A DNA stretch of 64,000 bases, from NCBI RefSeq assembly GCF_045037415.1, contig NZ_CP173438.1; one strand, given 5' to 3'. The stretch comes from Escherichia coli. Its GTDB lineage: Bacteria; Pseudomonadota; Gammaproteobacteria; Enterobacterales; Enterobacteriaceae. Of the stretch, positions 13,182 through 24,341 are shown piece by piece. Below the pieces are notes generated by a model, which had not been told where the DNA came from, made no database searches, and saw only the letters and a list, made by a program, of their open reading frames with translations. A program made the position numbers and the translations under genes. The first letter of the stretch is position 1; every line of letters begins with the position of its first letter.

Positions 13182-13820
13182 ATGCCCGGGCGCTTTGAAC
13201 TAAAACCAACCCTGGAGAAAGTCTGGCACGCGCCGGACAATTTTCGCTTCATGGACCCGCTGCCGCCGATGCATCGTCGGGGGATCATTATTGCCGCCAT
13301 TATATTGGTGGTCGGATTTCTGCTTCCATCTGATGATACGCCCAACGCGCCGGTGGTGACGCGTGAAGCGCAGTTAGATATTCAGTCGCAATCACAACCG
13401 CCGACAGAAGAACAGCTGCGGGCGCAATTAGTCACACCACAAAATGATCCTGATCAGGTGGCTCCGGTCGCTCCAGAACCTATACAGGAAAGCCAGCCAG
13501 AAGAACAGCCGCAAACTACCCAAACACAACCATTCCAGCCAGATAGCGGAATTGATAATCAATGGCGCTCTTACCGTGTCGAACCCGGTAAAACGATGGC
13601 GCAGCTGTTCCGCGACCACGGACTGCCCGCTACCGATGTCTATGCAATGGCGCAGGTAGAAGGCGCGGGTAAGCCGCTGAGTAATTTGCAAAACGGGCAA
13701 ATGGTGAAAATCCGCCAGAACGCCAGCGGCGTGGTGACGGGCTTAACCATTGATACGGGGAATAATCAACAGGTCCTGTTCACCCGCCAGCCGGATGGCA
13801 GTTTTATTCGTGCGCGGTAG
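13182..13820 (+). CDS. ytfB: Cell-division protein YtfB (OapA domain)
   Basis: ORF 13146..13820; ATG at 13182 preceded by AGGAGG gives [29 protein letters not shown]...; matches YtfB. Confidence 0.9.
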
Positions 13821-14451
13821 ATGAAGGGTCAACCAAAAGCCAGCTAAGGATTGTCTCTTTGATGACCTTACGTCTGGCTTCCAGTGCCTGGGGGGAAACC
13901 ATACTGATATGATAAACCAGGCCAAGCGTATGCTGGTTGATCAAATAATATCCGCCAAGCGCAGCAATATTAATATTCACCTGCAATGGGTCGATATCTG
14001 GCTTAAAAATATTTTGTTTCTTCCCTTCATCCAATAAGGATTCCATTAACTGCAAGTGCGCATGGTTAATTTCTAAAAGACGCTGTGATTTTGCATAATG
14101 CACACCCTTACTTTGATTTTCACTATGCACAATTTTTAAAAACCAGGGATTAGAAATATAATAATCCCATGTAAAATCGATTATTTTCTCAATGGCTTTC
14201 TGTGGCGGAAGATCTGAGAAATCAAGGGCCTTTTCTTTTTGTCGAATATCGTTCCAGGTATATTCCAGTACTTCGATAAATAAATTTTCTTTATTACCAA
14301 AGTGGTGATAAACCGTCTGTTTACTGCACCCCGCGGCCTTGACGATATTATCGACTCTGGCCCCTTCGTAACCATATTCGGCAAATTCATTAACCGCGCA
14401 TAACAGCAGCTTTTCTTTCAGGCTCTGTACGTTGCTGGTATCAAGATACAT
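13804..14451 (-). CDS. TetR/AcrR-family transcriptional regulator (accessory)
   Basis: ORF 13804..14523; internal ATG gives [58 protein letters not shown]..., a typical TetR N-terminal HTH. The gene looks AT-rich by eye and is divergent from the downstream operon; its 3' end overlaps the ytfB 3' end by 17 bp. Confidence 0.85.
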
Positions 14452-14573
14452 AACGCTTCCCCACGACCTCTTCGTGGTGACTATCATAACCTGATTTGAT
14501 TTCAGCTTCAGAAAAAAGGGCAAAAACTTGTACTTTCATCAGGTTATCAAATGTCCTGTGATCGCCATCGCAT

Positions 14574-14595
14574 ATCAACCAACTAGATGGTTGAT
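14574..14595. promoter_or_regulatory. Candidate TetR operator: perfect 8-6-8 palindrome in the TetR / SDR-operon divergent intergenic region
   Basis: atcaacca-actaga-tggttgat, ending 68 nt upstream of the SDR ATG (14664). Two further inverted repeats lie in the same region (ccacga...tcgtgg near 14461-14477; ataacctgat / atcaggttat near 14486-14495 and 14538-14547). Confidence 0.5.
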
Positions 14596-14663
14596 CTTTT
14601 TATCCTCCAGTCGCAAGCTAATCATCACTAAGGAAACAAAATTCAAAAAAAGAGAGCTATTGT

Positions 14664-15455
14664 ATGAAATCCACTCGTCCTGTTGCCGTGATTACCGGAG
14701 CCGCTCGTGGTATTGGAAAGGGCTGTGCGCTGGAGCTTGCGCGTGGCGGATTTAATCTGCTGATTAATGATCGTCCGGATGCGGATAGCGTAGAAAAATT
14801 ACATGCCACACAACAAGAATGTCTGGCGGAAGGCGTGGAAGTGATTTGCTTCCCTGCTGATGTGGGCGATCTCTCCCTGCATGAAGAGATGCTCGACGCA
14901 GCGCAAAACCAGTGGGGACGTCTGGACTGCCTGCTCAACAACGCAGGCATTTCAGTGAAAAAACGCGGTGACCTTCTCGACCTCGAACCAGACAGCTTCG
15001 ACCAAAATATTGCCATTAACACCCGCGCACCGTTCTTCCTTGCTCAGGCATTCAGTAAGCGCTTACTGGCACAGCCGAAACCGGAAGCAGAACTGCCGCA
15101 CCGCTCGATTATTTTTGTCAGTTCCATCAACGCCATCATGCTGGCGATGAATCGCGGCGAATATACCATTGCCAAAACTGCCGTCTCTGCCGCTGCTCGT
15201 CTGTTTGCTGCTCGCCTTTGTAATGAACAAATTGGCGTATATGAAGTGCGTCCTGGTCTCATCAAAACCGATATGACTATTCCGGCAACGGCCTATTACG
15301 ACGAACTGATTGCCAAAGGTCTGGTGCCGTGGGGACGTTGGGGTTATCCGGCGGATATTGCTTCCACTGTCCGCGCGATGGCGGAAGGTAAACTTATTTA
15401 CACCTGTGGTCAGGCGGTCGCCATCGACGGCGGCTTAAGTATGCCGCGCTTCTGA
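14664..15455 (+). CDS. Short-chain dehydrogenase/reductase (SDR, FabG-like)
   Basis: 263 aa with TGAARGIGKG cofactor motif, NNAG, and an S...YxxxK catalytic arrangement (YTIAK). Confidence 0.85.
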   Translation: MKSTRPVAVITGAARGIGKGCALELARGGFNLLINDRPDADSVEKLHATQQECLAEGVEVICFPADVGDLSLHEEMLDAAQNQWGRLDCLLNNAGISVKKRGDLLDLEPDSFDQNIAINTRAPFFLAQAFSKRLLAQPKPEAELPHRSIIFVSSINAIMLAMNRGEYTIAKTAVSAAARLFAARLCNEQIGVYEVRPGLIKTDMTIPATAYYDELIAKGLVPWGRWGYPADIASTVRAMAEGKLIYTCGQAVAIDGGLSMPRF

Positions 15456-15464
15456 GGCTGAATC

Positions 15465-22987: not shown

Positions 22988-23493
22988 TACTCTTTATTAT
23001 CAGGATCTTCTTCAATTGCCCGGCTAACCCTTTCCAGACTCGCTATTTCGGTAAATGGTGGGGCTGCAACATCAATGCGATTATCAAGAAACTCTCCAGC
23101 GTCTTCACGTTTGTATCGAAGAGCCCCAACCCGATAAAGATCATGAACACCTAGTAGATAATCAGACTCATAAAGGTGGGAGTCTTTATCACATAACCCG
23201 TCTCGAATATCCCTCTCAAAACGACGCTTCATTAGCATACGCCCCCAACGATCCGGGCAGGAATCACTAAATGCACCAAATTTATCCTTTGGAGGAATTG
23301 GGTACTGTGCTCCCTCATACAACATTATTTCAGGATCTAACTGAATGAAATTAAGTGAAGGATCTGCAAGCGCCTTTTTATCGTACTCAAACTCAAATAT
23401 CTCACGCGCCCGAGTGCGACGACTGTGTAAATAACCAATACGCGCAGGACCATCCAGGCCTTCCCAATCCGCATACACTCCGATTAATGCCAT
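22987..23493 (-). CDS. HipA N-terminal-domain protein (HipS/HipN-like; putative antitoxin or regulatory subunit)
   Basis: 168 aa MALIGVYADWEGLDGPARIGYLHSRR...SDSCPDRWGRMLMKRRF...LLGVHDLYRVGALRY, resembling the N-subdomain of HipA (LLPDSP...RDSVGA region); stop overlaps the kinase ORF start. Confidence 0.7.
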   Translation of the reverse strand: MALIGVYADWEGLDGPARIGYLHSRRTRAREIFEFEYDKKALADPSLNFIQLDPEIMLYEGAQYPIPPKDKFGAFSDSCPDRWGRMLMKRRFERDIRDGLCDKDSHLYESDYLLGVHDLYRVGALRYKREDAGEFLDNRIDVAAPPFTEIASLERVSRAIEEDPDNKE

Positions 23494-23495
23494 AA

Positions 23496-23987
23496 TTAAT
23501 TTCCTTTTAACGGTTTTTTTATCGGTTTTAATAGTGCAGCAAGAGAGGTTGATGTTTCTCCTGTAATAGATGGCGTCGAGCCTTCTGCCAGTGCTGTTAA
23601 ATCCGTGGTGAGATGACCTTCTTTCTCGTGCCTCATCTGCAATGAGGCTGTCTGAGAACCTTCTTCATTCTTACTTGATACACGAGACAGCCCTCTTTTT
23701 TTAATCAAACGGGAATCCTGGAGCTGACGCCCTAAGTCGTCTTCAGCTGCAAGCTTATTTAAATCCGTTTCCAGGCCCAAAACCTGCATCACAGACAAAT
23801 ATGCCCCTATCGTGACCCCTGCACTTCCTGACTCCAGAGAGCGCAATGTTATTGGCGACATCCCAGCACGTTCAGCAACTTGCTTTGCGGTAAGCCTGCG
23901 TCGTAAACGAGCAAGTTTCAGCCGCTCACCAAATTCACTAAGCATCTGATTCGTATAAGGGAGTAACGGTGCTGTTTTTTTACCCAT
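23496..23987 (-). CDS. XRE-family HTH DNA-binding protein (HipB-like) with a long Ser/Thr-rich C-terminal tail
   Basis: 163 aa; N-terminal HTH region ([32 protein letters not shown]) followed by about 90 residues of low-complexity sequence; stop lies 2 nt before the HipA-N ORF start. Confidence 0.7.
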
Positions 23988-24008
23988 AGTGATAATATTT
24001 TATCTTTT

Positions 24009-24027
24009 TATGGCTATGATAGCCATA
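24009..24027. promoter_or_regulatory. Candidate operator: 19-bp perfect palindrome upstream of the HTH / split-HipA operon
   Basis: tatggctat-g-atagccata, 22-40 nt upstream of the HTH start codon (23987) on the promoter side; flanked by a 23-bp direct repeat (see findings). Confidence 0.45.
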
Positions 24028-24341
24028 ATATTAGCATTTATTGGATTGAACGCACCTGCAAAGCGTTCAAGATTACGAAAGTGATGATATTTTATCTTTT
24101 TATATATAAAAACAATAAAATAACAGCACATTCATATATAACATATTGTTTTTATTATCATACAAGTGAGACGATCGCTGTATTGATGCTTTTGTCGTGT
24201 TTTACGCGTAAAAAACATGACACGAACTACCAGCGGCGAGGCTGGGGGCCAGGTATGGGTACTGCGAACTTTTTATAAAAGGAATAGCAAGAGATTTATG
24301 GAGGGAACGTCTGTTTCTGCAGTTTTTATCACTTAAAAGCA

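Follow-up and report, generated by a model that had tools for sequence, protein, structure and literature searches.

In Escherichia coli, the chromosomal interval between ytfB and rplI can hold a TetR-type regulator gene, an operon of five enzyme genes, a major facilitator superfamily (MFS) transporter gene and a hipBA-type toxin–antitoxin cassette. We analysed this interval in a 64,000-nt stretch (the window) of contig NZ_CP173438.1, RefSeq assembly GCF_045037415.1. Most probably the segment is composed of three nested layers at an old locus and is not one island. Comparison with K-12 argues strongly that the TetR gene and the five-enzyme operon were lost there by deletion, which would make the operon-less haplotype the derived state. 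Layer 1, the TetR gene and the five enzyme genes (13804–20713), would have occupied the ytfB–rplI interval already before the Escherichia species split from one another. In layer 2 the transporter would have been exchanged, being either the MFS protein of the window or a uronate-type tripartite ATP-independent periplasmic (TRAP) system, with a breakpoint in the 3’ end of the flavoenzyme gene. Layer 3 would be a slot between convergent terminators that accepts small cassettes. The sole true insertion appears to be a 2.2-kb helix-turn-helix (HTH)/HipA cassette (22110–24335), placed in a slot that is empty elsewhere.

The K-12 arrangement and the limits of the segment

The window was examined through a listing of its open reading frames (ORFs) together with the RefSeq annotation of a genome that is 99.99% identical over positions 12000–26000. 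Both place ten ORFs between ytfB (end 13820) and the rplI terminator (24341–24367), as the original prediction had stated, and the annotation flags the HipA gene as ‘frameshifted’. K-12 was represented by the genome of a K-12 derivative and compared with the window by BLASTN. Its ytfB–rplI interval carries only two annotated genes, a TetR gene ‘missing N-terminus’ (ytfA) and yjfZ, in agreement with the two small genes that the original prediction named for this position.

K-12 is collinear with the window from 12000 to 14206, a point inside the TetR gene (13804–14451, minus strand), and rejoins it at 24336. The shared part of the window TetR gene, its 3’ 403 bp (13804–14206), is the homologue of the pseudogene ytfA. 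The predicted variable stretch exists, with limits of 14207–24335 and not 13804–24340. Between ytfA and yjfZ, the K-12 derivative retains a 102-bp relic of the short-chain dehydrogenase/reductase (SDR) gene, 79% identical to window positions 14753–14854, so that the order after the TetR stump is SDR relic, yjfZ segment and then the window match from 24336. Because two stumps of the locus remain, K-12 is best described as a deletion derivative. The piece lost between the stumps, 14207–14752, comprises the 5’ part of the TetR gene, the divergent promoter/operator region and the 5’ end of the SDR gene. An 8-bp direct repeat, GTGGCGGA, brackets it in the intact allele, with copies at 14202–14209 and 14743–14750. 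The SDR relic is unannotated in K-12 (L002:4212–4313 in the K-12 derivative) and shows 79–85% identity to extant alleles.

The ytfA–yjfZ interval of K-12 (b4205 region) is therefore the same chromosomal locus, with a ytfA homologous to the window TetR gene. However, it lacks the TetR 5’ part, the promoter/operator, the five enzymes and the transporter, and it has yjfZ where the window has hipBA. By homology, the ‘orphan’ K-12 pseudogene ytfA appears to be what is left of a regulator gene whose operon other strains have kept. The 17-bp overlap between the 3’ ends of ytfB (end 13820) and TetR (from 13804) is real. It had been taken for an unusually tight island junction, but the same overlap is present in K-12 and so does not mark an island boundary.

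The claim that mobility genes and tRNA sites are missing held up. The RefSeq annotation of the segment in the 99.99%-identical genome contains no integrase or transposase, and the only tRNA genes of the window are three tRNA-Gly genes at 58191–58489, 34 kb off the segment. The segment edges are gene-internal breakpoints and terminators, and the mobility signature expected of a genomic island (integrase or transposase, tRNA/att site, flanking direct repeats) is not seen.

Distribution, ancestry and alternative histories

The distribution of the locus was counted over 5,426 complete E. coli genomes, with the operon scored at 80% coverage or more. The operon is the majority state, being found in 3,111 genomes (57%), and the K-12-type deletion junction occurs in 2,227 (41%). 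Alignment to K-12 did not recover the same ten genes, and the operon is likewise not a property of essentially all E. coli. The MFS gene is present in 1,684 genomes, a TRAP transporter replaces it in 1,446, the HTH/HipA cassette occurs in 1,040 (chromosomal every time) and yjfZ in 2,513. These searches returned no plasmid matches for the operon or the hipBA cassette DNA. We rejected a phage or integrative element as the source of the segment on the grounds that there are no mobility genes and no plasmid matches for the DNA.

Genomes exemplifying each of these arrangements were inspected. In some genomes yjfZ lies downstream of an intact operon; as the two co-occur, they are not alternatives. 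One strain lacks the FAD and MFS genes, one inspected arrangement has IS609 inserted in the TetR stump, UTI89 carries the insertion sequence IS1 in its MFS gene, and other cassette carriers have IS1 in hipA. The pattern is one of repeated, independent decay of an old locus combined with two swap points. Many K-12-type haplotypes also contain an IS200/IS605-type element (a tnpA pseudogene and TnpB) in the ytfA relic, at a position corresponding to 13911 of the window; it was seen in strain 1919D62 (L005:2456–4097) and in O157:H7 records.

Sister taxa were scanned with the flavoenzyme as query, in one genome per species, by a method that relies on six peptide words. The gene order cycA–fklB–ytfB–TetR–SDR–TIM barrel–enoyl-CoA hydratase–CoA-transferase–flavoenzyme–MFS–rplI is identical in E. 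whittamii and Entomohabitans teleogrylli (77–89% at the amino acid (aa) level). E. albertii shows the same order after ytfB up to a contig end inside the flavoenzyme gene. In the cryptic Escherichia sp. MOD1-EC7003, the right part of the operon adjoins rplI, and its contig starts in the CoA-transferase gene. Synonymous divergence (dS) of the operon is 0.26–0.68 against two Escherichia species and 1.2–2.7 against Entomohabitans, and the flanking fklB and ytfB give 0.33–0.52 and 1.0–1.5, respectively. The ratio of nonsynonymous to synonymous divergence (dN/dS) is 0.02–0.12 for the operon genes and 0.04–0.07 for TetR against other Escherichia and Entomohabitans, and all operon genes are intact and constrained in the window. 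The simplest reading of the operon is long vertical residence under purifying selection.

Several observations weigh against an operon of such age and against its loss from K-12. The SDR relic of K-12 has diverged by 15–21%, whereas the ytfA relic next to it matches the window at about 99% identity. Moreover, the operon was not detected in representatives of Salmonella, Citrobacter and E. fergusonii, in a scan whose six peptide words do not prove absence. Were the absence real, an ancestral operon would require several losses, or else that it passed between Escherichia and Entomohabitans by way of their conserved flanks. Identity of the operon among E. coli haplotypes is also mosaic, ranging from 85 to 100% per 300 bp, which implies that recombination has moved alleles around.

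Could the segment be a foreign 10.5-kb island that replaced yjfZ and ytfA in the lineage of this strain, the K-12 arrangement being original? Its absence from K-12 and from 41% of genomes would fit such an origin, as would the failure to detect a relative in Salmonella in the one scan made. The TetR, MFS and hipBA genes are lower in GC than their neighbours, with GC contents at third codon positions (GC3) of 0.43, 0.48 and 0.33–0.38. However, only the hipBA cassette is clearly atypical. The enzyme genes, at 0.49–0.58, are of ordinary E. coli composition when set beside the flanking non-ribosomal core genes (0.53–0.63). The truncated TetR and SDR pieces in K-12, the operon in the same position in four other taxa, with a dS similar to that of the flanking genes, the majority status of the operon and the presence of yjfZ downstream of intact operons all speak against a foreign island. 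The K-12 relics and the sister-species synteny largely refute it, and we consider it highly improbable. The original prediction of an old replacement island was correct in that the segment is strain-variable, old and no recent mobile insertion; for about 8 kb its direction was wrong, since K-12 lost the operon.

A spread of the operon by homologous recombination via the ytfB and rplI flanks, with presence in sister species reflecting transfer and not ancestry, is unlikely too, if less so. The mosaic identity along the operon speaks for it, together with its patchy occurrence among Enterobacteriaceae and the transporter-swap breakpoint in the flavoenzyme gene, where the C-terminus came from a donor only 44–64% identical. 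Yet the operon dS tracks the flanking core dS for three outgroups at very different distances, and gene order and operator are conserved. The deletion relics, moreover, make the operon-less haplotype derived in any case. We thus retain vertical residence of the operon, followed by its deletion in K-12.

Transporter exchange and the hipBA cassette slot

In the TRAP haplotype, homology to the window stops inside the flavoenzyme gene. The flavoenzymes of the MFS and TRAP haplotypes are mostly 94–100% identical before residue ~612 and 44–64% identical after it. The type of the C-terminal ~80 aa (residues ~612–690, window ~20470–20713) follows the type of the downstream transporter. This switch implies that the TRAP block arrived by recombination with a diverged homologous operon. 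The co-segregation of tail and transporter may reflect no more than an intragenic breakpoint, or else an interaction of the two.

The cassette slot begins at a terminator-like hairpin 3’ of the MFS gene (22093–22129, plus strand) and ends at the bidirectional rplI terminator hairpin (24341–24367, minus strand), which forms the fixed right edge in every haplotype. The slot contains nothing in E. whittamii or E. coli MSI001, yjfZ in other E. coli, and hipBA (22110–24335), between the two convergent terminators, in the window. In Escherichia sp. MOD1-EC7003 it contains a 138-bp hipA relic with 88% identity, and for this reason the hipBA cassette is not recent either. MOD1-EC7003 and Entomohabitans carry an extra gene for a MaoC-like (R)-enoyl-CoA hydratase 3’ of the MFS gene (L009:5373–6061 and L011:13657–14136).

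To judge from its sequence, hipBA is a compositionally foreign, horizontally acquired kinase toxin–antitoxin pair. Among plasmid-borne sequences, its nearest relatives come from Azotobacter (76% aa) and Pantoea (72% aa). The HTH gene (23496–23987, minus strand) lies upstream in the same operon and ends 2 nt before the start of the kinase gene (22226–23493, minus strand). It encodes a HipB-like putative antitoxin and autoregulator of 163 aa, compared with 88 aa for HipB of K-12, and matches the HipB-type antitoxin model TIGR03070 ‘couple_hipB’ with an E-value of 3e-7, below the cutoff. An HTH gene followed by the gene for a HipA_C kinase of about 420 aa is the bicistronic organisation of type II hipBA modules such as K-12 HipA/HipB (Gerdes et al. 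2021, PMC8262856). Whereas the order is shared, K-12 HipA is very distant from the cassette kinase, and the kinase gene of the window is frameshifted. The intact kinase allele encodes 422 aa with a Pfam HipA_C domain at 184–397 (E 9e-47), and the catalytic motif DDHLRNHGF is readable in the kinase sequence. No HipA structure matched the kinase at E ≤ 0.01; its nearest solved structure is HipT of the O127 HipBST system (E 5e-8). The PADLOC defence-system models recognised neither the kinase nor YjfZ.

The window allele lacks one C near position 22990, which turns GAG CTA ATG into GAG TAA TGG. At the resulting TAATG stop/start overlap (22987–22991), an N-terminal fragment of 168 aa (22987–23493) meets a C-terminal fragment of 253 aa (22226–22987), both complete ORFs. 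There is no intact toxin frame in the window, and the intact 422-aa gene occurs in 499 other genomes, with strain SCU-124 as one example of an intact allele. The split allele is present in 544 of 1,044 cassette carriers, a group that corresponds to the 560 genomes with a cassette identity of ≥99%. Among its carriers is a record labelled O25b:H4-ST131 whose operon protein accessions are those of the window-identical genome. Since the split-allele carriers are this near-identical class, fixation needs no selection, and we read the 1-bp deletion as a probable pseudogenisation fixed in a clone.

The tripartite HipBST system of E. coli O127:H6 suggests a different interpretation, in which the split hipA is functional: TAATG-coupled translation would produce two chains that rebuild the kinase or control it, in the manner of HipS and HipT. 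HipBST likewise consists of three consecutive ORFs (HTH, N-terminal fragment, kinase fragment), and HipT is the closest solved kinase core. In the window, the stop overlaps an in-frame ATG, both fragments are complete, and the allele has reached 544 genomes. However, HipBST is split into ~103 + 335 aa, and the window gene into 168 + 253 aa by a 1-bp deletion that roughly half of the carriers share. The break at residue 168 falls about 12 residues before the Gly-rich loop, inside the equivalent of the HipT N-terminus, whereas the HipS/HipT boundary would lie near residue 100–125. HipBST has a separate HipS (~100 aa) and HipT (~335 aa) throughout its family; close relatives of the cassette kinase have one 422-aa gene. 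The 499 intact alleles, the coincidence of the 544 carriers with the ≥99%-identity class and its ST131-labelled record, the pseudogene call by RefSeq and the IS1 insertions in the gene of other carriers all favour decay, and we regard a functional split kinase as very unlikely.

Upstream of the HTH gene (23988–24103, minus strand), a 24-nt direct repeat, AGTGAT(A/G)ATATTTTATCTTTTTAT, occurs twice, 92 bp apart (23988–24011 and 24080–24103). One copy directly adjoins the start codon of the HTH gene, and the copies enclose a perfect 10-bp palindrome (24008–24028). Repeats and palindrome are candidate HipB operators.

The enzyme operon and its putative substrate

The TetR/AcrR-family regulator gene is divergent from the operon. 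In the TetR/SDR intergenic region, the palindrome ATCAACCA-N6-TGGTTGAT (14574–14595) has arms that are invariant in five taxa from E. coli to Entomohabitans, whereas the surrounding intergenic DNA has diverged. Its position at the divergent promoters would fit a TetR operator, for which it is our candidate. The regulator found no equivalog-level match in NCBIfam (best 48 bits vs a cutoff of 200). For the operon proteins too, NCBIfam gave no equivalog above cutoff, with the exception of the generic SDR family.

The five enzyme genes follow on the plus strand, with 10-nt gaps or small overlaps between neighbours. The first encodes a PRK12745-type SDR (14664–15455; 420 bits, cutoff 250), whose nearest solved structures, 4DA9 and 4ONE, are structural-genomics entries without assigned function. 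The same holds for 3QC0 and 3JU2 (SMc04130; E 4e-85), the nearest solved structures to the xylose-isomerase-like TIM barrel protein (15465–16307), a ‘sugar phosphate isomerase/epimerase’ with weak NCBIfam matches. A crotonase-family enoyl-CoA hydratase/isomerase (16317–17093), so assigned by RefSeq annotation and NCBIfam, precedes a fused family-I acyl-CoA:acetate/3-ketoacid CoA-transferase (17103–18644), which is FadX-like (E 6e-115) and below the family cutoff. The last enzyme is a 690-aa FAD_binding_2 flavoenzyme related to NadB, FrdA and TfrA (18641–20713). The MFS transporter gene (20806–22083, plus strand) follows; the best NCBIfam match of its product is the D-galactonate-transporter subfamily TIGR00893 (314 bits, cutoff 395).

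The flavoenzyme scores 125 bits against its best curated family, where the cutoff is 718. Residues corresponding to NadB His351 and Arg386 are present in it, and the position of the capping-domain ‘QFH’ His reads ‘QFG’. We excluded an aspartate oxidase or fumarate reductase on account of the score far below cutoffs and the missing capping-domain His. Classical β-oxidation was likewise rejected, the flavoenzyme being of the FAD_binding_2 (NadB/FrdA) type and not of the acyl-CoA dehydrogenase fold, and the operon having no thiolase.

Hints to the substrate come from the transporters. The binding protein of the alternative TRAP haplotype, WP_000695886.1, has as its nearest solved relatives the glucuronate/galacturonate binders 4X8R, 4N8Y, 4N15 and 4N91 (E 1e-62 to 1e-72), with ligands as described in PMC11668362 and PMC7660916. 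It is homologous to the binding proteins of hexuronate TRAP transporters (STM3169-3171 of Salmonella; Bamb_6123, PDB 4N15), a likeness of homology only. Unlike those systems, the locus has CoA-dependent enzymes beside the transporter and not uxaC/uxuAB, and the window itself carries an MFS protein. Annotation and NCBIfam found no uxaC, uxuA or uxuB in the operon; the resemblance to hexuronate systems is confined to the transporters. That two unrelated, interchangeable transporters both seem to point to sugar-acid-like anions leads us to infer a hydroxylated carboxylate related to hexuronates, a class we hold to be somewhat less probable than even, and any particular compound much less probable still. 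A second TRAP binding-protein gene, with ~79% nt identity over 150 bp, lies elsewhere in ~870 E. coli genomes and may be the Salmonella STM3169-type glucuronate TRAP.

The neighbourhoods of 79 homologous flavoenzyme loci contain Gfo/Idh/MocA proteins (36), glucose–methanol–choline (GMC) oxidoreductases (27 and 23), LacI regulators (25), SDRs (25), sugar ATP-binding cassette (ABC) transporters (22), TIM barrel proteins (21), CoA-transferases (13), 2-keto-3-deoxygluconate (KDG) kinases (13) and crotonases (12). In Raoultella, LacI is followed by CoA-transferase, crotonase, a shikimate/tricarballylate-type transporter, flavoenzyme and flavodoxin. A quinate/shikimate-type substrate, suggested by ShiA-like and PcaK-like transporters beside homologues in Raoultella and Brenneria, was kept only within the ‘hydroxylated carboxylate’ class. 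The idea that the operon works together with the neighbouring ula (ascorbate) genes had proximity as its one argument and was dropped.

We tentatively propose, as a reading that has rather less than an even chance of being right, a catabolic route not described before, in which a hexuronate-like or hydroaromatic carboxylate is processed in the form of its CoA thioester. The operon would supply a NadB/FrdA-like flavoenzyme, a crotonase, an SDR and a TIM barrel enzyme for this route, and either transporter could serve the uptake. TetR would bind the palindrome until the substrate or an acyl-CoA intermediate released it. The transporter would import a hydroxylated carboxylate, probably one resembling a sugar acid, for activation by CoA transfer. 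The flavoenzyme would then desaturate or reduce next to the thioester, the crotonase would hydrate, the SDR would oxidise (alcohol/ketone oxidoreduction) and the TIM-barrel enzyme would isomerise or dehydrate.

Two known systems offer partial parallels. The tricarballylate operon tcuRABC of Salmonella combines a carboxylate-dehydrogenating FAD_binding_2 flavoenzyme and an organic-acid MFS transporter with a LysR regulator and the Fe-S partner TcuB. Our operon shares the pairing of an FAD_binding_2 flavoenzyme with an MFS protein; unlike tcuRABC, it lacks a TcuB-type Fe-S partner, has a TetR and not a LysR regulator, contains four further enzymes, and its flavoenzyme falls below every curated cutoff. 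In the cyclohexanecarboxylate (ali/bad) pathway of Rhodopseudomonas palustris, CoA activation is followed by flavin dehydrogenation, crotonase hydration and SDR oxidation. The operon shares this logic, whereas its flavoenzyme is of the NadB/FrdA type and not an acyl-CoA dehydrogenase, a thiolase and ring hydrolase are absent, and a TIM barrel is added. Three further points count against the proposed route: the capping-domain His of NadB is absent from the flavoenzyme; CoA chemistry is unusual for sugar acids; and we found no curated family, function-assigned solved structure or paper that gives the operon substrate.

Literature searches on the operon, ytfA/yjfZ, ytfB/rplI, the structure 7VPF, SMc04130 and the enzyme combinations returned no paper on the operon, and those on ST131/HipA returned no description of this hipBA. 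The operon genes are already routinely annotated in thousands of RefSeq genomes, and none of this will surprise specialists in E. coli pangenomics. The locus is an ordinary strain-variable catabolic operon with a toxin–antitoxin cassette, and one useful correction is that the K-12 state is derived: the K-12 gene order is not always the ancestral one, and ytfA is a case in point. If the proposed route were real, it would go back to the ancestor of Escherichia, most E. coli would possess it, and it would have gone unstudied because K-12 deleted the operon. Being conserved and under purifying selection, the operon would be a sensible object of study in surveys of how metabolism differs between E. 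coli strains in the gut or urinary tract.

The swappable slot also has a bearing on diagnostics. The gene yjfZ has been published as a ‘conserved signature’ quantitative PCR target for E. coli/Shigella and proposed as a universal marker, and one strain in the table of that study gave a YjfZ signal about 3 log lower (PMC11057252). It is missing in more than half of the complete genomes. In the window and in the examined ST131 record, yjfZ (L002:4478–5272 in the K-12 derivative) is absent, and hipBA sits in its slot.

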